Made by a program: the position numbers and the translations under genes. From a virus (taxonomy: Duplodnaviria > Heunggongvirae > Uroviricota > Caudoviricetes), in IMG/VR virus record IMGVR_UViG_2698536649_000010: a stretch of DNA of 9,075 nt; one strand, written 5' to 3'. Position 1 is the stretch's first letter, and every line of letters begins with the position of its first letter. Positions 84-7,641 of this stretch are shown in pieces. The notes under the pieces were generated by a model. That model was not told the origin of the DNA and made no database searches. It saw nothing but the letters and a program-made list of their open reading frames with translations.

Positions 84-139
84 AAAAAGGGCGGACATCA
101 GTTCATGGGCAAACAGATGCCGCCAAACGTCACCAGAAA
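84..139 (-). ncRNA. dicF: DicF-like small RNA (cell-division inhibitor sRNA of Qin-type prophages)
   Basis: Minus-strand read (revcomp of + 84..139) is UUUCUGGUGACGUUUGGCGG...CCGCCCUUUUU. The 5' 20 nt and the 3' CCGCCCUUUUUAAAGUGAAUUUUGUGAUG context match E. coli K-12 DicF as I recall it; GC hairpin plus U5 run forms an intrinsic terminator. Same strand and downstream position relative to dicA as in K-12. The central ~25 nt differ from K-12. Confidence 0.65.
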
Positions 140-472
140 ATTGATAACAGAGGGCGTTGCAGCGGGGTTGTCACTTAAGCGTATGGTCAACCTGACAACC
201 CGGTGTCCTCAACGGGGAAGGAATAACCCCGCCATACTTACCGCTGCGCCATTTCGCGGAGTGCCACAACCGGAAGCGCACGGTCGACGAAAATTTAACG
301 ACAGGCTATCTATGAACCAGCAACCTCGCCGTGCGCTTTCGCGTTATGCTCTGACTTTTCAGAGAAATATCCTTTCAGTAAACTGTCAGTGCCGGATGTT
401 CACCCGTGTCCGGCGCACGCACTCCACTTCACCCGTGGAGAACTCCTTAATTACCAACCCTCAGGAGGGTGA

Positions 473-706
473 ATGTTAAAATCAACTCTTATTGCTAAAT
501 GCCTTTATCAAAATCGCATGGTAAGCAGCATTTCAATAGGCGAGTCTGCAGTTAAAAGTATTTTCGAAGAGTACTTTCCCGGGCATGATTTTAATAAATG
601 GAATACCAAATTACCGCCAGCAGTTTCAACGCGTATTCTGAAAGCAACCGAAAGAGCAAGTACAATTCGCGTTAACTATTTCATTAAAGATTTGTGGGAT
701 CTTTGA
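473..706 (+). CDS. hypothetical 77-aa protein, convergent to the dicB-type operon
   Basis: ATG at 473 preceded by a near-perfect SD (AGGAGG at 462..467); AT-rich coding sequence; protein-like composition. 3' end overlaps the 3' end of the minus-strand 135-aa gene by 23 nt. No homolog recognised. Confidence 0.3.
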   Translation: MLKSTLIAKCLYQNRMVSSISIGESAVKSIFEEYFPGHDFNKWNTKLPPAVSTRILKATERASTIRVNYFIKDLWDL

Positions 707-1091
707 TATCCACAGAGCCTAAAGTATGTGCATATGGATGTGCTATTATGCGCCCTCGCAGATTTGCATCATTTTCTAAATTCACTGAACGAAACAGGGC
801 ATCAACAAGGCTCTGTACAATGCAAAGGCAATCGAAGACTGTCGCCGTTTCTGTTTTGATTGATGAAAGAACATGGCCATTCACGCAAACAGAAATTACC
901 CGTTTATTAACATCGCTTTCCTGCTTTTGATTATCAGAACCATATAGCCCAGAAAAAGCATTGCGCACATTACGAACCATATTATCGATGGTTTCTTTTT
1001 CTGCGGTACTAAGGTCAAGAGTAGCCAGTTGTGAACGAACTATATTCGATGCCATTTCCTGTAATGGCGTTGGTAAATCTTTAAATTCCAT
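684..1091 (-). CDS. hypothetical 135-aa protein (operon cargo, unknown function)
   Basis: ATG at 1091 with GAGG SD about 7 nt upstream on the minus strand; lies 22 nt downstream of the preceding operon gene. No homolog recognised. Confidence 0.6.
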   Translation of the reverse strand: MEFKDLPTPLQEMASNIVRSQLATLDLSTAEKETIDNMVRNVRNAFSGLYGSDNQKQESDVNKRVISVCVNGHVLSSIKTETATVFDCLCIVQSLVDALFRSVNLENDANLRGRIIAHPYAHTLGSVDIKDPTNL

Positions 1092-1113
1092 TATTAGCCT
1101 CGTTGGTTAGCTA

Positions 1114-1332
1114 TTAACGTGGGTATGTAATCATTCTGGCAATGCTTAATGCCGCTGCTTTTTCCAGATTGGTGATATCCTGCTCCAGAGCGGACAGATT
1201 TTCAGCCTGCTTAGCCCTGGCTTCATTGGCCCATTTCAGGTCCTGCACCGCCTTAATTTTCTGGTGCATCCACTCATAAAGTTCATCATCGGTATAGTCT
1301 GGCGCGATGATGACGGGGTCTCGTTTCTGCAT
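1114..1332 (-). CDS. small prophage protein, 72 aa (YdfC-like by size and operon position)
   Basis: ATG at 1332 with strong SD (AAGGAG) 6 nt upstream on the minus strand. The 72-aa length and the position between dicA and dicF match ydfC of the K-12 dicB operon; sequence identity not verified from memory. Confidence 0.6.
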   Translation of the reverse strand: MQKRDPVIIAPDYTDDELYEWMHQKIKAVQDLKWANEARAKQAENLSALEQDITNLEKAAALSIARMITYPR

Positions 1333-1404
1333 GTCGGCTCCTTGTGGTTAGCGTTGCCTGCTTTTTAACCACGTCAGGCGAGGTGGTATCCTCTGAGGGG
1401 TCTG

Positions 1405-1761
1405 TTACTCGAGAGGAAATTGGTTATGAATACAATCAAGTTTTCTTGCCCAGAATGTGGTGGCTAAGTCTTTGACACATCCTTTAAGCCGCAGGGCTCT
1501 GACAGTTTCGCGGGAGCCATCTGCAAAAATTGTGGTCACCTTGTAACTGAAGATGAGTCCTCGCAGTTCGATGACGAAATCGTTGACAATATCTTCGGTG
1601 CACTCACCAGAGACTTTCTGAAGTAAAGGCGCATACCGCTTAGTTACCGCTCTGATAACTCTTACCTGTCCGGCAATGGCGCTGATATCAATATAAAGCG
1701 CCATCGCTGTTTCTTTGCTGATCCCTGGACGCCTTCCATTCTGATGTTTGACTTCGCCCAC
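1405..1761 (-). CDS. hypothetical 118-aa protein, first gene of the leftward dicB-type operon
   Basis: GTG start at 1761 with GAGGA SD upstream on the minus strand; first ORF downstream of the putative operon promoter. Does not correspond to the short ydfA/ydfB of K-12; an internal ATG (MALYIDIS...) is an alternative start. Confidence 0.5.
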   Translation of the reverse strand: MGEVKHQNGRRPGISKETAMALYIDISAIAGQVRVIRAVTKRYAPLLQKVSGECTEDIVNDFVIELRGLIFSYKVTTIFADGSRETVRALRLKGCVKDLATTFWARKLDCIHNQFPLE

Positions 1762-1840
1762 TGAGAAATCCTCTGCTTCCCCTTAACGCCGGGTAGCGGA
1801 ACTGTTTGCTGAGAACACCGTGCGGTGTCTTGATGAGTAG

Positions 1841-1870
1841 AATTTAGAATAGCCTAAGAGTTATGGTCAA
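1841..1870 (-). promoter_or_regulatory. candidate dicB-operon promoter with embedded DicA-type operator
   Basis: On the minus strand: -35 TTGACC (+1865..1870), 18-bp spacer, -10 TAAATT (+1841..1846). The 14-bp palindrome TTAGAATAGCCTAA (+1844..1857) overlaps the -10 and has the same TTAG-N6-CTAA form as the three sites in the dicA/dicC intergenic region. Confidence 0.4.
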
Positions 1871-1967
1871 GCTTTTGTGTAGAAAAACCTAAGCTTCTTG
1901 ATGTAAAAAACACAAGTATTTGAAAGTTTGTGCTTTTTATTACAGAGAGTTGCGAAAAAAAGGGGGG

Positions 1968-2375
1968 TTATTTATTTGCGCTTCTTTTGCGAGCTTTGAG
2001 TAGTTCTTCAAAAAGTTTGTTGAAATTCTCAACTCGAGCACGCATCTCTGACAACAGAGCCTTTTGCTCTGACTCAGGCAGTGCGTCGAACAGTTGAAGC
2101 AACTCTTTTTGATCTTCTGTCAGATTGACTGGCTGATTATCTGGGATCGGTTCGCCTGGTTGCTTATCTTCATCTCCAAAAAGAAGCCAAGTCGGCGAGC
2201 ACTGAAGCGCCTGGCTCAGTGCGAATAATCTCTTCCCCGCTGGCTGTGTTTCATCTCTTTCCCATTGAGAAATTGTTACGTGAGCCACTTTGACCAGCTT
2301 ACCTAATGCGGCCTGAGACAGTTTTAATTTTTTTCGCCTGTATAAGAGGCGAGCACCGAAGGTTTCGTTTTTCAT
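1968..2375 (-). CDS. dicA: DicA-type repressor (XRE-family HTH, cI/C2-like prophage repressor)
   Basis: 135-aa product closely matches recalled E. coli DicA along its length (LFALSQALQCSPTWLLFGDEDKQP, ARVENFNKLFEELLKAR). Divergently arranged with a Cro-like gene. Confidence 0.9.
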   Translation of the reverse strand: MKNETFGARLLYRRKKLKLSQAALGKLVKVAHVTISQWERDETQPAGKRLFALSQALQCSPTWLLFGDEDKQPGEPIPDNQPVNLTEDQKELLQLFDALPESEQKALLSEMRARVENFNKLFEELLKARKRSANK

Positions 2376-2451
2376 ATTAGGTAATTCTAATTTTTCTTGA
2401 CTTAGGTTTCTCTACGATCTAGTTTCCTTAGGAAAATCTAAGGGGTTCGAT
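2376..2451. promoter_or_regulatory. dicA/dicC divergent promoter region with three TTAG-N6-CTAA operator-like palindromes
   Basis: Sites at 2377..2390 (TTAGGTAATTCTAA), 2402..2415 (TTAGGTTTCTCTAC) and 2428..2441 (TTAGGAAAATCTAA), centres 25 to 26 bp apart. Rightward -35 TTGACT at 2397..2402 and SD AAGGGG before the dicC ATG. Leftward -10 TAGAAT (minus strand, +2384..2389) sits 8 nt from the dicA ATG with no SD, suggesting a leaderless PRM-like transcript. Confidence 0.5.
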
Positions 2452-2679
2452 ATGTTGAAAATTGATGCTATAGCGTTTTTTGGCAGCAAAACAAAGCTTG
2501 CCAATGTCGCAGGAGTTAGGCTGGCAAGCGTTGCTGCATGGGGGGAACTGGTTCCTGAAGGTCGCGCGATGCGCCTGCAAGAGGCATCCGGCGGGGAACT
2601 TCAGTACGACCCCAAAGTTTATGACGAATATCGTAAGGCAAAGCGGGCGGGGCGGTTGAACAATGAAAATCACCACTGA
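2452..2679 (+). CDS. dicC: DicC-type Cro-like regulator
   Basis: 75-aa product matches recalled DicC (GSKTKLA, LVPEGRAMRLQEASGGELQYDPKVY, RAGRLNNENHH); divergent from dicA. Confidence 0.85.
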   Translation: MLKIDAIAFFGSKTKLANVAGVRLASVAAWGELVPEGRAMRLQEASGGELQYDPKVYDEYRKAKRAGRLNNENHH

Positions 2680-3214
2680 ACAGGTTTGTGAGGCTCTGGA
2701 TACCTGGGTATGCCGACCAGGAATGACACAGGAGCAGGCGACGATATTAATCACGGAAGCATTCTGGGCTCTGAAAGAACGCCCGAACATCGATGTTCAA
2801 CGCGTCACGTTTAATGATGGCGAGGTTGATCAACGGGCGCTGGGCGTTAACCGGGTGAAGATATTCGAACGCTGGAAAGCTATCGACACCAGAGATAAGC
2901 GTGACAAATTCACGGCGCTGATTCCGGCAATTATGGAGGCTATCCGGATCAGCGATTTCAGATTGTATTGTGAAATTACTGACGGAAAAAGCATTACGTA
3001 CATGATCGCCGGGTTAAACAAAGAATATGGCGATGTGGTGGAGTCCGGGCTGCTTTTTGCGGATCCAGTTGTTGTGGAACGTGAGACTGACGAGCTTATA
3101 GAAAAAGCTATTGCTTTCAAGCACGCGTATCGTCAGCAATACCAATATTACTTTGCAGATAAACAAATGTCTGCCAGGGGGTCGTATGAGTATCGATGCA
3201 CTACGATGGGCTAA
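2663..3214 (+). CDS. YdaT-like (CII-position) prophage regulatory protein
   Basis: ATG at 2663 overlaps the dicC stop; 183-aa product resembles recalled Rac YdaT in the central region (ERWKAIDTRDKRDKFTALIPAIMEAI versus WLKGETKTQREKIQKLIPAILAIL). Sits directly after the Cro-like gene. Confidence 0.55.
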   Translation: MKITTEQVCEALDTWVCRPGMTQEQATILITEAFWALKERPNIDVQRVTFNDGEVDQRALGVNRVKIFERWKAIDTRDKRDKFTALIPAIMEAIRISDFRLYCEITDGKSITYMIAGLNKEYGDVVESGLLFADPVVVERETDELIEKAIAFKHAYRQQYQYYFADKQMSARGSYEYRCTTMG

Positions 3215-3767
3215 AAAGGTGAAAACCGGCAGTTCATCCAGTAAGTCAGTATTGACCTGGCTTGCTGATATGTGCGGTGCCGATTTGTGTGCATACCCGT
3301 CTGTATCTGCACTGGCAGAAGTAACGGAACTGAACAAAAAGACTGTGCAGGACAGCTTACGACACCTGATGGAGATTGGGTTAATTGTTGATACCGGTGA
3401 GAGAAAAGGCAGAACAAAGCAAATTGTGGTGTACCGACTTATCGGTGTAGAAGAAAGTGTTGCCGAGCCTGAATACACCCAAAAACGGGAGTCTTTAAAG
3501 GTGGGTACAATTGGTGCTGTTAATAAAAACAGTACCGAAAATGGTTATGTTTCAGCACAAAACAGACCCAAAAACAGAACTCTTAGCTGCATGGAAAATA
3601 ACCAAAGACACCCAAATTTTCCATCAAAGACACCCAAAAACGGATCACGGAACCCAAAGGAACCCAAAGATCTAAACCCCACACATAACGCACGCGAGAG
3701 TGCTCCGACCAGTGAGCAGGAAGTTTTGTCGTTACAGGCAGCCCCCCTGTATTCCTGTATGGCCTGA
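3186..3767 (+). CDS. replication initiator, N-terminal winged-helix part (lambda O-like role); probably truncated by a frameshift
   Basis: ATG at 3186 with GGGGG SD. N-terminal HTH-like region, then a low-complexity linker encoded across iteron-like repeats. Frame ends at TGA 3765..3767 shortly after a C6 homopolymer (3742..3747); the following frame carries the DnaT-like continuation. Confidence 0.6.
   Translation: MSIDALRWAKKVKTGSSSSKSVLTWLADMCGADLCAYPSVSALAEVTELNKKTVQDSLRHLMEIGLIVDTGERKGRTKQIVVYRLIGVEESVAEPEYTQKRESLKVGTIGAVNKNSTENGYVSAQNRPKNRTLSCMENNQRHPNFPSKTPKNGSRNPKEPKDLNPTHNARESAPTSEQEVLSLQAAPLYSCMA
3475..3670 (+). repeat. iteron-like direct repeats (candidate replication origin) inside the initiator gene
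   Basis: Six copies of an ACCCAAA-core motif with core at 3477, 3566, 3609, 3631, 3652, 3662. Spacings of 43, 22, 21 and 10 bp approximate multiples of a helical turn. Position inside the linker-coding part of the initiator gene parallels ori-lambda inside O. Confidence 0.45.
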
Positions 3768-3790: not shown

Positions 3791-4225
3791 ATGAGCGATA
3801 GCTGGTATCCGTCACGGGATTTTCGACGACGGGCTGCGTTGTGGGGGATGGCTTTGCCGGAGACAGAATTTACACCTGCTGAACTTGCCGCCTTCCGGGA
3901 CTACTGGGCAGCGGAGGGGAAAGTGTTTACGCAGATTCAGTGGGAGCAGAAATTCGCCCGTCACGTAAATCACGTCAGGGCGCAGGTTAAACCAGTCAGC
4001 AAAGGGGTAAACCATGCAGCAGCACCAGGTGGCACCGCATCACGGGCAGTTCAGGAAATTCGGGCAGCACGTGAGCAGTGGGAACGTGAAAACGGATTTA
4101 TCAGCGACGGAAACGGCCTGGAAGCTGTGGGAACTCATGGGGGTGGTTTATTCGAACCGCTGGATCCAGAAGAACGGGGCCGCACCTTCGAAGCTCTGGA
4201 TTGCACAGATTGGCGCGATGACTGA
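3791..4225 (+). CDS. DnaT C-terminal-domain-like (primosomal protein I-like) ORF; probably the frameshifted C-terminal half of the initiator
   Basis: Product YPSRDFRRRAALWGMALPETEFTPAELAAFRDYWAAEGKVFTQIQWEQKFAR aligns with recalled E. coli DnaT ([55 protein letters not shown]). The similarity continues upstream of ATG 3791 in the same frame (EPIGKFPM versus VPMGKFAM), where no start codon exists. 3' end in this frame (4225) overlaps the P-like gene by 212 nt, so the true stop is uncertain. Confidence 0.5.
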   Translation: MSDSWYPSRDFRRRAALWGMALPETEFTPAELAAFRDYWAAEGKVFTQIQWEQKFARHVNHVRAQVKPVSKGVNHAAAPGGTASRAVQEIRAAREQWERENGFISDGNGLEAVGTHGGGLFEPLDPEERGRTFEALDCTDWRDD

Positions 4226-4679
4226 GCAGCAAATCCGGCAGGTCTGCCGCCAGTGCATGGACCGCTGCCGGGCGGGTGAAACATGGCCTCCGGACCTGGC
4301 TGAGTTTGTGGCACTGATTTCGAAAAGCGGAGCCAATCCATTCGGTCTGACGGTGGATGCTGTGATGGAGGAGTACCGCCGCTGGCGCAATGAGTCCTGG
4401 CGATACGACGGAAGTGATAAGTACCCGTGGTCTCAGCCTGTGCTGTATCACATTTGCCTCGAGATGCGTTCAAAGGGGATTGAGCGCCAGATGACCGAAG
4501 GGGAATTAAAACGGCTTGCAGAACGGCAACTGACGAAATGGGCAAAGCATGTTAGTAACGGCCTGAGCGTTCCGCCAGTCCGGCGACAACTGGCGGCCCC
4601 CAAACGCCCGTCGGGGCCAACGCCAATTGAGTTGCTGAAACAGGAATATGAACGCCGGAAAGCGGCCGGTTTTGTCTGA
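4014..4679 (+). CDS. lambda P-like replication protein (DnaB helicase loader)
   Basis: ATG at 4014 with AAGGGG SD 7 nt upstream; 221 aa. C-terminal half aligns with recalled lambda P (YDGSDKYPWSQPVLYHICLEMRSKGIERQMTEGELKRLAERQL versus YPDAESYPWKSNAHYWLVTNLYQNMRANALTDAELRRKAADEL). Confidence 0.75.
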   Translation: MQQHQVAPHHGQFRKFGQHVSSGNVKTDLSATETAWKLWELMGVVYSNRWIQKNGAAPSKLWIAQIGAMTEQQIRQVCRQCMDRCRAGETWPPDLAEFVALISKSGANPFGLTVDAVMEEYRRWRNESWRYDGSDKYPWSQPVLYHICLEMRSKGIERQMTEGELKRLAERQLTKWAKHVSNGLSVPPVRRQLAAPKRPSGPTPIELLKQEYERRKAAGFV

Positions 4680-4713
4680 GTTGAGAAGTAATTTTTACCG
4701 GGAGGAAAATTTA

Positions 4714-5448
4714 ATGGAAACCGTTTTTGACGCACTGAAAGCGATGGGAAAAGCCACGTCGGTATAGCTGGCTGCGCGACTTGATATCAGTCGTGAAGAA
4801 GTACTGAACGAGCTGTGGGAACTGAAAAAGGCTGGCTTCGTTGATAAAAGCGTATACACCTGGCGTGTGGCTGATAACAACGTTCAGCAGGAACAGCCAG
4901 CGCCAGAAGAAACCACCACGGCAACAGAAGCGAAAATCTCAGAGTGCGATTTAACCGCGACGATTGAACAACGCGGACCACAAACGGCGGATGAACTGGC
5001 TACGCTGTTCGGTACAACATCCCGCAAAGTTGCTTCAACGCTGGCAATGGCAATCAGCAAAGGTCGTCTGATTCGCGTAAACCAGAACGGTAAAATTCGT
5101 TACTGCATACCAGGTGATAATTTACCAGCAGAGCCGAAAGTTGAATCGGTAGCGGAAACCGATGGTAAAGCCTTTCCTCAGCCAGCCGGTGTTGCGTTAC
5201 CGGTACAGAAAGATGCAACACAGGAAGATATTAAAACAGAAACTGTGGCGGACATTGTGCAGTCGCTGCCATCGTTTACTGCAACGCGAGAAGATGATTT
5301 GATTTTGCCATCGCTGCATATGGCAAATCGCGAACTGCGTAGGGCGAAGAATCATGTCCAGAAGTGGGAGCGAGTCTGCGCCGCGCTGCGGGAGCTGAAC
5401 AAGCACCGGGATATGGTTGCCGGGATTTGTCGGAAGTCCGGGCAATGA
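4714..5448 (+). pseudogene. double winged-helix protein gene interrupted by an in-frame amber codon
   Basis: ATG at 4714 with GGAGG SD 8 nt upstream. Codon 18 is TAG (4765..4767) and the same frame continues open to 5448. The N-terminal repeat ([40 protein letters not shown]) and a second repeat ([38 protein letters not shown]) both look like winged-helix units. First possible restart downstream is GTG 4867. Confidence 0.55.
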
Positions 5449-5483: not shown

Positions 5484-6056
5484 ATGAAGGTAAAATGCAT
5501 CGGCAGTCTGATTGGTCGTAGTGAGGCGGCGGTCAGGATGAAAGCCCAGGTTAAGGGAATAAGCCTGATTCTGCGGGGTGATTTTCACCAGTCAACAAAA
5601 TATCCGTAGCGCGATAACGGTCAAAAATTATGGCGCTGACACTTTTGTGCCACTGGAGATGACTGTACCTAAGTTCAGGGGAGAAGAACACGTCCGGTGG
5701 GATGGTCGGGCCAGATTTAAAGGGCAGGTCATGGCTCCAGCCTGTACGCTGGCAATGGAGGCTGCCTGGCGGGAAATTGATATGGGAACCACGCCACTCA
5801 GGGATTTACTGCCGGTCCAGAGAATAAATTCCTGTTACGGTTACACCACTGTGATCTTGCAAGTGCAGGAAAGTAGGTCTACACGGTAACGCGAGTGCGT
5901 GTAACTTTTGATGTCATTCCCGTAGAAACACCGGACAAATTTTCGCTGACAGGTCATGCAGAAGGTATAAATCTGCAGATTATGGACAATTACGGATATC
6001 CGGCAAGAGCCGGAAAAAGCATGCCGCCTCTAATTCTCAGTGGAAGATGGACTTGA
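5484..6056 (+). pseudogene. decayed fimbrial major-subunit-like gene remnant (chaperone-usher type)
   Basis: Three successive frames carry fimbrial-like segments: a signal-like MKVKCIGSLIG (from 5484), then GRARFKGQVMAPACTL...INSC (5578..5889; compare FimA GGTVHFKGEVVNAACAV...LNDC), then GINLQIMDNYG (5895..6056; compare FimA GVQILDRTG). At least two frame changes are needed, and the usual C-terminal strand is missing where the AT-rich block begins. Confidence 0.35.
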
Positions 6057-6307
6057 TTATACTCATTGCATTGTCAGAAATAGTTATCCATTAAAGGCTG
6101 GCTATTCCAAACAGGATGTTGATTACAAAAATGTAATCAACATGTAAGGTTTATACTCTTCAATATGCGTATAATTTTCCTTATTTTGTTGACTTTAAAT
6201 AACAAGCTATGCACGAGGTAAAGTCGGATAAGTTTATCTGGATGTAATATATATTATTTGTAGTGTTTATAACTTTATTTCATGATAACCAATAAAAGGA
6301 GTTTTTT
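6057..6307 (+). promoter_or_regulatory. AT-rich upstream region of the binding-protein moron (promoter not resolved)
   Basis: Strongly AT-rich compared with flanking phage genes. Contains a 10-bp inverted repeat GTTGATTACA-AAAA-TGTAATCAAC (6118..6141), a TATAAT hexamer at 6170..6175, TTGACT at 6189..6194, and a strong SD AAGGAG at 6296..6301 before ATG 6308. Confidence 0.35.
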
Positions 6308-7066
6308 ATGAGGAACATAATGGCAGGTTTTTTAATATTCCTGTCTTCTGCTGCTTATGCTGATATCAATCTGTATGGTCCTGGTGGCCCGCATACAGCC
6401 TTGCTTGATGCAGCCAAACTTTATGCCGAAAAAACAGGTATTATAGTGAACGTTCATTACGGCCCACAGAACAAATGGAATGAAGATGCCAAAAAAAATG
6501 CAGATATCTTGTTTGGCGCATCAGAACAATCTGCTCTGGCTATCATTCGGGACCATAAAGACAGCTTCAGTGAAAAAGATATTCAGCCTCTTTATCTGCG
6601 AAAAAGTATTTTACTGGTAAAGAAAGGTAATCCTAAAAATATCCGGAGTATTGACGACCTGACCAGACCTGGGATTGGCGTAATTGTTAATGATGGTGGT
6701 GGTACCAGTAATACATCAGGCACTGGCGTCTGGGAAGATATTGCCGGACGTAAAGGGAATATAGAAACTGTCGCCGCAATCCGAAAAAATATTATTTTAT
6801 ATGCGCCCAATAGCGGAACTGCACGTAAGGCTCTTGAGAATCAGCCTGGAGCAGATGTCTGGATAACCTGGGCTGACTGGGCAGCCAGTAATCCAGAAAT
6901 TGGTGATGTCGTGGAAATAGCGCCAGACTACGTGATATGGCGTGATATGAACATTACAGTACGTCAGGATGCAAATGATGAAACCCGTCGATTTGCAGAA
7001 TGGCTACAAACCGATGAAGCGGCGCCTGCATTCAAAAAATATGGCTGGACCAGGAAAGGCACTTGA
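6308..7066 (+). CDS. secreted periplasmic substrate-binding protein, ModA-like fold; orphan (no transporter genes adjacent)
   Basis: 252-aa product with N-terminal signal peptide (MRNIMAGFLIFLSSAAYA then DINLYG). Resembles recalled E. coli ModA at several points (ADILFGASEQSA versus ADLFISADQKW; C-terminal RFAEWLQTDEAAPAFKKYGW versus AFYDYLKGPQAAEIFKRYGF). AT-rich codon usage. Confidence 0.8.
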   Translation: MRNIMAGFLIFLSSAAYADINLYGPGGPHTALLDAAKLYAEKTGIIVNVHYGPQNKWNEDAKKNADILFGASEQSALAIIRDHKDSFSEKDIQPLYLRKSILLVKKGNPKNIRSIDDLTRPGIGVIVNDGGGTSNTSGTGVWEDIAGRKGNIETVAAIRKNIILYAPNSGTARKALENQPGADVWITWADWAASNPEIGDVVEIAPDYVIWRDMNITVRQDANDETRRFAEWLQTDEAAPAFKKYGWTRKGT

Positions 7067-7249: not shown

Positions 7250-7302
7250 GCTGCGGGTGCTTGAGGCTATCTGCCTCGGGCATGAACACCAACGGCAGAT
7301 AG

Positions 7303-7353
7303 ATAAAAGCCCCACCCGACTATAAATCGAAGTGAGGCCCCTATATGCTCGTC
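7303..7353 (-). ncRNA. candidate Sok-like antisense RNA
   Basis: Minus-strand hairpin (7309..7339, stem with two G-U pairs) followed by a U-run (7308..7303). Possible promoter on the minus strand: -35 TTGACC (+7383..7388), 17-bp spacer, weak -10 CAATCT (+7360..7365). It is antisense to the hok leader around the mok start, where Sok acts in known hok/sok loci. Confidence 0.3.
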
Positions 7354-7401
7354 ACATATAGATTGCCTCTTACGGACCGAAAGGTCAAGGAGAAGCAGGC
7401 T

Positions 7402-7458
7402 ATGAAGCAGCAAAAGGCGATGTTAAAAGGCGGGGGAGAAATCCCTCGCCACCTCTGA
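7402..7458 (+). pseudogene. hok: truncated hok toxin ORF (18 codons; HokD-like N-terminus, transmembrane segment absent)
   Basis: Encodes MKQQKAMLKGGGEIPRHL then stop. The first 8 residues match recalled HokD/RelF (MKQQKAMLIALIVICLTV...); the hydrophobic helix and C-terminal domain are missing in all three frames before the terminator, implying an internal deletion of roughly 100 to 130 bp. Confidence 0.55.
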
Positions 7459-7490
7459 TGTGTCAGGCATCCTCAACGCACCCGCACTTA

Positions 7491-7516
7491 ACCCGCTTCG
7501 GCGGGTTTTTGTTTTT
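7491..7516 (+). terminator. intrinsic terminator of the hok-type mRNA
   Basis: Stem ACCCGC / GCGGGT with loop TTCG, followed by TTTTTGTTTTT. Confidence 0.7.
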
Positions 7517-7641
7517 ATTTTCAACGCGTTTGAAGTTCCGGACGGCGCCGGAATAGAATCAAAAATACTTAAGTAGCGCGCAGGGAGAAGAGGGATGGAC
7601 CCCGAACAGGGGAGTGCTATTTATCTGGAAGGATTCTGTTG

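Follow-up and report, generated by a model that had tools for sequence, protein, structure and literature searches.

A probable lambda-style replication origin inside the frameshifted initiator gene of an Escherichia coli prophage

Analysis of a 9,075-nucleotide stretch of a Caudoviricetes genome (IMG/VR virus record IMGVR_UViG_2698536649_000010; hereafter referred to as the window), which represents a prophage type of Escherichia coli, revealed a cluster of direct repeats with the core ACCCAAA inside the gene for the prophage's own replication initiator, and we consider it likely, on the basis of sequence comparison, that these repeats serve as the iterons of a replication origin of the lambda type. 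A first-pass annotation had already likened the cluster to ori-lambda within the O gene, and this proposal was supported by the gene context, the related phages, the use of reading frames, a reverse search starting from the repeat, and the position of mosaic junctions. The heptamer occurs exactly six times in the window (positions 3477, 3566, 3610, 3632, 3652 and 3662; spacings of 89, 44, 22, 20 and 10 nt), always on the plus strand and always within the 192-nt stretch 3477-3668, and no further copy was found anywhere else in the 9,075 nt. All six copies that the first-pass annotation had assigned to 3475-3670 were thereby recovered, and their number exceeded chance expectation in both shuffle tests. 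None of 200 dinucleotide shuffles of the whole window contained six or more copies (mean 1.5). As the array region is A/C-rich, local dinucleotide shuffles of 3470-3675 or 3441-3700 were added, and no 7-mer reached six non-overlapping copies in any of 5000 shuffles (maximum 5); counting overlapping k-mers in the same local shuffle gave 2-3%, a value inflated by poly-A runs. Likewise in agreement with the earlier description, the array occupies the linker-coding part of the initiator gene, between the regions for a winged-helix N-terminal domain (about 3186-3440) and a DnaT-like domain, and comprises six exact cores or, counted as whole sites, four to five full or degenerate ones.

The repeat unit turned out to be longer than the 7-nt core originally described, as a repeat search of the window returned AATACACCCAAAAACGGGAGTCTT and CAAAGACACCCAAA three times each. 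The predicted functional unit is about 11-13 bp long, CCC(A/G)AAAACGG(G), with a C-run, an A-rich centre and a G-run arranged in weak dyad symmetry (CCC...GGG), and now and then it forms a true palindrome, as with CCCAAATTTGGG in Acinetobacter phage AP22 and GTCCCAAATTTGGGAC in Burkholderia phage Bcep176. In codon-aligned views, full or near-full sites were located at 3478-3489 (CCCAAAAACGGG), 3567-3577 (CCCAAAAACAG), 3611-3622 (CCCAAATTTTCC) and 3633-3643 (CCCAAAAACGG). The six exact heptamers are therefore real, but only four of them (3477, 3566, 3610 and 3632) belong to sites that are kept in relatives. A degenerate, conserved site at 3535-3544 (CCGAAAATGG) had been overlooked in the first-pass annotation.

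Variation of the individual sites was followed in 80 near-identical E. coli copies obtained from a scan of viral contigs in IMG/VR, a set that shows polymorphism and not diversity. Only sites A and F (Table 1) were invariant among these alleles. Iteron A lies in a 26-nt block identical to that of Edwardsiella phage EPP-1, the flanking DNA coding for the N-domain not being identical, while CCCAAAAACGG of iteron F was invariant at 11/11 nt in all nine aligned Enterobacterales sequences and lies within a 37-nt block (3626-3662) that is free of polymorphism in the 80 alleles. The degenerate site is restored to CCGAAAACGG by a T>C exchange at 3542 in some E. coli alleles, and iteron D becomes a full CCCAAAAACGG in most alleles by a G at 3576. 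At the position of copies 5 and 6, relatives carry GGAATCTACC or AACCTAAAG (AACC(T/A)TAAAG), so that the two copies are lineage-specific, possibly the product of a local 10-nt duplication. The array has two GATC (Dam) sites at its distal end; the first (3643-3646) overlaps iteron F on the right, and the second (3669-3672) lies within the AAAGATCTAAA junction described below, where AAAGAT was invariant in nine aligned sequences and the full AAAGATCTAAAC present in five of the nine.

A tblastn search with the N-domain retrieved relatives of 37-71% identity in Edwardsiella phage EPP-1, Burkholderia phage Bcep176, Acinetobacter phage AP22, Vibrio phage Her and E. coli phage phiV10, to which a genome scan with a three-sequence N-domain alignment as query added further relatives from Scandinavium, Enterobacter, Kluyvera, Plesiomonas, Edwardsiella, Desulfovibrionaceae, Methylophilaceae and Zoogloeaceae. 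Comparison with related prophages, which the first-pass annotation had proposed as a check, placed an array of direct repeats with the same or a similar motif at the matching in-gene position, immediately after the part coding for the winged helix-turn-helix (wHTH), in all 17 relatives selected by homology. For the reverse test, IMG/VR was scanned for CCCAAAAACGG-N5-35-CCCAAAAACGG, which yielded at least 120 contigs, and a hidden Markov model (HMM) of the N-domain was run on them; in 111 of the 120 contigs listed, the model matched on the same strand and ended 0-166 nt upstream of the repeat pair. These 111 listed matches form at least 31 clusters below 70% identity, and every array copy was located inside the open reading frame (ORF). 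Judged from these sequences, a single short iteron, CCCAAAAACGG, appears to be common to at least 31 such clusters of HTH_36-type initiators from Enterobacterales, Vibrio and Acinetobacter phages and others, unlike in the classical lambdoid phages, where each O type has an iteron of its own.

Distant relatives devoid of the DTGERKG wing carry other palindromic repeats at the same place and in several frames, namely CCCCGAAC-GTG-GTTCGGGG, GTGCCAAAAGTGGCAC and GTCCAGAATCTGGAC. Such in-gene repeats were observed in the loci from Desulfovibrionaceae (L016, 1773-1900, CCCCGAACGTGGTTCGGGG), Methylophilaceae (L018, about 1700-1800, GTCCAGAATCTGGAC) and Zoogloeaceae (L019, 1788-1870, GTGCCAAAAGTGGCAC). 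The spacings in the Desulfovibrionaceae locus (17, 17, 17, 22, 22, 22) and in Bcep176 (17, 17, 22, 22, 22) both consist of a run of 17 nt followed by three of 22 nt. In addition, the element CAGAACC(AG/TA)TCA was found right after the last iteron in phiV10 (L007, 2305-2350), Vibrio phage Her (L006, 2465-2485) and AP22 (L005, 2360-2385), with AACCAGTCAT(A/T)T repeated three times in tandem as 12-mers in phiV10. It may represent a second origin element, for example an unwinding or loader site, and no counterpart of it was found in the window.

The boundaries of the module were revealed by comparison with initiators of different architecture. Homology to ydaU of Rac-SA53 and to an Actinobacillus phage begins at 3666-3670, directly past the last repeat, and covers the same DnaT-like C-domain and P-like gene, with the N-domain of the Rac-SA53 initiator being a DUF1376 domain. 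EPP-1, on the other hand, has the N-domain and the array in common with the window and continues from about the same point with a C-domain of the Phg_2220_C type. As the junctions with two other initiator architectures thus fall right after the last repeat (about 3666-3675), N-domain and repeats behave like a single module that can be exchanged, just as they do in the O genes of lambdoid phages, and the two also covary, since initiators without the DTGERKG wing carry other repeats.

With regard to the protein, the 5′ fragment of the initiator matched the PHROG family 'replication initiation protein' (phrog_1032, E=2e-38) and its N-terminus several PHROG 'replication initiation O-like' families (E 1e-8 to 1e-12). 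For Pfam HTH_36 (PF13730), the window protein reached 22 bits versus a cut-off of 25, relatives scored 30-47 bits (E 1e-7 to 1e-12), and a precomputed PF13730 assignment exists for N-domain homologs at 52-79% identity. An AlphaFold (AF2) model of residues 1-100 displayed an H-H-b-H-H-beta-hairpin topology; the underlying alignment was shallow, as the protein homolog search gave 31 close relatives, most of them truncated. Every top fold match of this model in the PDB was a wHTH DNA-binding protein (E about 2e-3, TM about 0.5), and when the PDB was searched by sequence with a profile of the N-domain, no hit was significant, the top one being the wHTH regulator 2d1h (E=0.06). In view of this predicted fold, the label 'winged-helix initiator' is reasonable for the window protein, if not strongly proven. 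The initiator family also showed weak DnaD-like PHROG and Pfam matches as well as a weak Pfam similarity to RP-C. The product of 3791-4225 matched the NCBIfam DnaT model with E=1e-26, which is under the equivalog cut-off, and a gene for a P-like helicase loader is located directly downstream of the initiator.

Low-complexity coding bias, without conservation of position or phase in homologs, was the explanation against which the first-pass annotation had set its own proposal; in the relatives, the position of the repeats was conserved and their phase was not. If the repeat were a peptide-level feature, a flexible linker of the P-K/E-N-G type would have been selected as protein, with the likeness in the DNA as a by-product, and indeed many copies encode xP(K/E)NGx in a linker that is rich in Asn, Lys and Pro. 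However, the same DNA word is read in all three frames in the window (TQKR, RPKN, HPNF, TPKN, NPKE and EPKD) and in at least two frames in 13 of the 17 relatives and 24 of the 31 independent N-domain clusters, and the spacings of the arrays are often not multiples of 3 (10, 17, 20, 22, 23, 25, 26). Orthologous sites retain the same DNA in different frames, as is the case for 3633-3643, which is read as T-P-K-N-G in the window and as D-P-Q-K-R in EPP-1. Codon usage was compared in 12 ORFs picked by homology alone, a larger ORF set being biased as it was ascertained on the motif. Inside [PT][KE]NG copies, Pro was encoded by CCC in 26/26 cases versus 33/189 elsewhere (p=2e-17) and Asn by AAC in 35/36 cases versus 117/194 elsewhere (p=2e-6), and these codons were fixed even in the phage of the A+T-rich Acinetobacter. 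Given the use of several frames, the fixed synonymous positions and the invariance across genera despite a change of frame, coding bias was rejected; we regard a repeat selected as peptide as very improbable, the idea being largely refuted by frame use, spacings and fixed codons. The sequence comparisons instead support selection on the DNA, in the form of sequence-specific sites that covary with the DNA-binding domain. Equally little credence is given to recent neutral slippage or duplication in the linker of a decaying prophage gene, a stretch that is A-rich and unconstrained. Copies 5 and 6 do resemble a local duplication confined to one lineage, the prophage carries frameshifts, and the array is more polymorphic than the N-domain (0.164 versus 0.081 segregating sites per nt). 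Yet phages of several orders, whose N-domains are as little as about 35-50% identical, have motif and position in common, sites A and F do not vary between genera, and functional phages such as EPP-1, AP22, phiV10 and Bcep176 carry the array in intact genes. Slippage was consequently rejected for the four conserved sites, while it is still plausible for copies 5 and 6.

Constraint at the DNA level shows a function of the DNA without saying which one, and several observations weigh against its being that of an origin. The helical phasing claimed in the first-pass annotation is weak and not conserved: a Rayleigh test at 10.5 bp, uncorrected for the choice of period, gave p of about 0.1 when all six copies were used and about 0.02 with the last five, copy 1 is out of phase by half a turn, and the spacings in relatives cluster at 15-18, 22-26 and 32-36 nt. 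No lambda-like AT-rich tract was found past the array, as the first-pass annotation had noticed, the GC content being 0.47-0.55 after 3620 compared with a drop to 0.23 over the 40 nt that follow iteron 4 of lambda; the suggestion to look for such an element in homologs led only to a mild mean dip in GC past the last site (0.41 versus 0.49 locally). DnaA boxes were looked for and none were found. Two of the six ACCCAAA copies, 5 and 6, are not conserved in relatives, and among the 80 E. coli alleles polymorphic positions were not significantly rarer in iterons (10/78) than in spacers (23/123, p=0.33). The structure model of the N-domain is of moderate confidence (mean pLDDT, the predicted local distance difference test score, of 69), and the Pfam family Phage_rep_O (PF04492) matched neither the window protein nor five relatives, with lambda O itself scoring 6e-36. 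An hhalign comparison of the N-domain with lambda O gave a probability of 3%, the expected HTH and wing segments being aligned without significance, so that the PHROG 'O-like' families are the sole link to lambda O and homology to it is not demonstrable. Finally, a literature search, incomplete in coverage, found no experiment on this initiator family and no paper on the CCCAAAAACGG motif or the origin of an HTH_36/DnaT-type initiator. The repeats could accordingly bind the initiator or another protein for the purpose of regulation, be it autorepression, a transcriptional roadblock in the operon, handcuffing and copy control, or the exclusion of related phages. Iteron plasmids use the same sites for both jobs, and the lack of an adjoining AT-rich unwinding element fits a regulatory role as well. 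Against a purely regulatory array stand its position, which corresponds to that of ori-lambda and of the putative origins of P22 and phage L, the absence of any other candidate array in the operon and of further copies of the motif in the window, and its association with a gene for a loader, which suggests use as an origin. We therefore consider regulation alone improbable. No promoter-like or terminator-like sites were found in the array.

An origin inside the initiator gene is textbook knowledge for lambda, and the candidate origin shares with ori-lambda, as well as with the six-iteron Shiga toxin (Stx) phages 933W and P27, an array within the initiator ORF that follows the DNA-binding N-domain and precedes the loader-contacting C-domain. 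As in lambda, a P-like loader gene comes next, and N-domain and iterons are inherited together. The sites themselves are also alike: the annotated lambda iterons ATCCCTCAAAACGAGGGA and ATCCCTCAAATTGGGGGA, which begin just past the O N-domain, have the same order of C-run, A-rich centre and G-run as CCCAAAAACGGG of the window, the window unit resembles lambda's TCCCTCAAAACGAGGGA, and many relatives possess four to six sites at about 20-24 bp spacing. Unlike in lambda, the window sites measure 11-13 bp instead of 18-19 bp and have 3-bp instead of 6-bp arms, the C-domain is DnaT-like, the N-domain is of the Pfam HTH_36 type and not of Phage_rep_O, the spacing is irregular, and no AT-rich tract follows. 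Iteron plasmids with a winged-helix Rep protein (pPS10, F, P1, R6K, pSC101) carry their iterons outside the rep gene, beside an AT-rich DNA unwinding element and DnaA boxes. They resemble the window in the predicted winged-helix fold of its initiator, in direct repeats that all have one orientation and in the weak Pfam RP-C similarity, and differ from it in that the window sites lie inside the ORF with neither DnaA boxes nor an AT-rich tract. The replisome organiser G38P of Bacillus phage SPP1 has a winged-helix N-domain and binding repeats (oriL) inside its own gene, with G39P as loader; SPP1 differs in its Gram-positive host, its repeats and its loader. Distantly related O/gp18 proteins each have their own in-gene iterons, namely four of ~20 bp in lambda, four of ~20 bp in P22 and six of 11 bp in phage L, whose origin was predicted from sequence as six imprecise 11-bp repeats, TGTCCAACGGA (PMC8022706), and six iterons are required for replication in Stx phages (PMC7466680). 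With gene 18 of P22 and of phage L, the window has in common about six short repeats of ~11 bp in a distantly O-like initiator gene and an origin predicted from sequence, whereas repeat sequence and initiator family differ and the partner there is a DnaB-type helicase (gp12) and not a P-like loader.

By analogy with lambda O and P, several N-terminal winged-helix domains of the initiator would bind the array and build up an O-some-like nucleoprotein complex, the DnaT-like C-domain would recruit the P-like loader carrying host DnaB, and the strands would begin to separate within the array or next to it. The stretch of lowest stability in the gene (3493-3630, GC 0.33-0.35) lies inside the array and ranks among the top 5-9% least stable stretches of the 9-kb window. 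It is from this analogy that we infer that the initiator binds the array, that the array works as an origin, that the loader is recruited, and where the DNA opens. Since they have to be translated as well, the sites lie in the unconstrained linker and are read in whatever frame they happen to occupy.

The gene that the first-pass annotation had taken for an initiator is of the initiator type but frameshifted in the window: a single C is missing from a C7 run (3742-3747), which splits the initiator into the ORFs 3186-3767 and 3791-4225. The intact allele of 346 amino acids (aa) is one gene in PPompW prophages, which are 99.4% identical to the window, and was present in 69 of the 80 IMG/VR copies, the 193-aa truncation occurring in 1/80. 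E. coli 97-3250 is the closest genome match and the sole listed match of equal length (615/615), and RefSeq calls its initiator gene of the same length 'frameshifted'. The 193-aa product would keep the DNA-binding half alone. With this half separated from the recruiting, DnaT-like half, the origin can probably not be fired by the gene's own product in the window, and we regard it as probably orphaned. It was also observed that many N-domain homologs in databases (proteins P0005-P0010) are about 100-170 aa long and end in or just past the array, some of them reading the array in another frame; rich in A-runs as it is, the array may easily suffer frameshifts or errors of sequencing and assembly.

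Most likely, the in-gene origin represents the ordinary lambdoid arrangement, the initiator being of a less-studied family and this copy of its gene frameshifted, and the current view of phage replication is left unchanged by these findings. They assign a probable origin to a prophage type that was found in 907 of 5426 complete E. coli genomes (about 17%), among them O157, O111 and O26 Shiga toxin-producing E. coli (STEC), some of whose copies host Stx2a phages integrated into them. For the large family of HTH_36 initiators, they offer an annotation rule, according to which a CCCAAAAACGG-type array right after the wHTH would mark the origin, while the motif read in several frames illustrates neatly how a DNA signal can be overprinted on coding sequence, and the frameshift marks the window copy as probably replication-defective. 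A more far-reaching combination, which we consider doubtful, would join the shared CCCAAAAACGG iteron, with possible cross-talk between the origins of different prophages, to a role of truncated DNA-binding fragments (193 aa) as origin blockers. If the same site were recognised throughout, prophages that share a host without being related could activate or block one another's origins, and the 193-aa fragment, which lacks the DnaT-like, loader-recruiting half, could be a dominant-negative origin blocker and thereby a superinfection-exclusion factor acting at the level of replication. Such origins would fire without a classical AT-rich element, perhaps with a DnaT-like domain that binds single-stranded DNA trapping the opened DNA.

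Table 1 Position of the candidate iterons and of the neighbouring features in the window.
Feature	Position	Strand	Remarks
cI/DicA-like repressor	1968-2375	-	
P22-Cro-like gene	2452-2679		
YdaT-like gene	2663-3214		
Initiator 5′ fragment	3186-3767	+	193 aa; winged-helix N-domain and repeat-bearing linker; premature stop from frameshift
Winged-helix (HTH_36-type) N-domain	3186-3440	+	Conserved wing DTGERKGRTKQIVVY
Iteron A	3477-3489	+	ACCCAAAAACGGG; full site, reads T-Q-K-R, frame 0
Degenerate iteron	3535-3544	+	CCGAAAATGG; orthologous to CCC/CCG-AAAACGG sites of relatives (alignments)
Iteron D	3566-3578	+	ACCCAAAAACAGA; reads P-K-N, frame 2; right arm degenerate in the window
Iteron E	3610-3622	+	ACCCAAATTTTCC; reads H-P-N-F, frame 1; palindrome-like variant, as CCCAAATTTGGG in AP22 and GTCCCAAATTTGGGAC in Bcep176
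Iteron F	3632-3644	+	ACCCAAAAACGGA; reads T-P-K-N-G, frame 2; best conserved of the sites
Copies 5 and 6	3652-3668	+	ACCCAAAGGAACCCAAA; two overlapping half-sites without right arm; frames 1 and 2
Mosaic junction	3666-3675		AAAGATCTAAA; N-domain and iteron module / C-terminal module
C6 run (C7 in intact alleles)	3742-3747	+	1-bp deletion, alignment to LC567822
DnaT-like C-terminal part, now a separate ORF	3791-4225	+	Pfam DnaT PF17948, E=5e-16
Lambda-P-like helicase loader	4218-4679	+	Pfam Phage_lambda_P (PF06992), E=1e-16; phrog_109 'P-like helicase loader', E=1e-61; RefSeq 'replication protein P'

Judged by its gene order, the window is a lambdoid early-right operon with repressor, Cro, YdaT, initiator and P-like loader (Table 1). 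For the loader gene, the mechanically called ORF starts at 4014 and would overlap the 3′ end of the initiator by about 210 nt, whereas the RefSeq-equivalent start is the ATG at 4218; with the initiator stop codon at 4223-4225, this ATG is placed 3 nt upstream of the stop, and the two genes overlap by 8 nt, as is typical of translational coupling. According to the RefSeq annotation of the matching 97-3250 locus, the DUF1627 gene (4713-5446) and a fimbrial-like gene (about 5612-6145) are likewise frameshifted or carry an internal stop. Together with the frameshift in the initiator, these lesions point to a decaying prophage. A Paa/AcfC-family adhesin gene (SBP_bac_11 fold) was located at 6308-7066; the DNA that precedes it (6127-6290, GC 0.13-0.23) is the most AT-rich in the window, and the gene looks like separately acquired cargo in the prophage. 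Further downstream, an Rfam match to the sok antitoxin RNA (7255-7404, plus strand; 104 bits, E=2e-23) is followed directly by the hokD toxin gene (RefSeq hokD, about 7400-7555), and the two constitute a hok/sok type I toxin-antitoxin locus.

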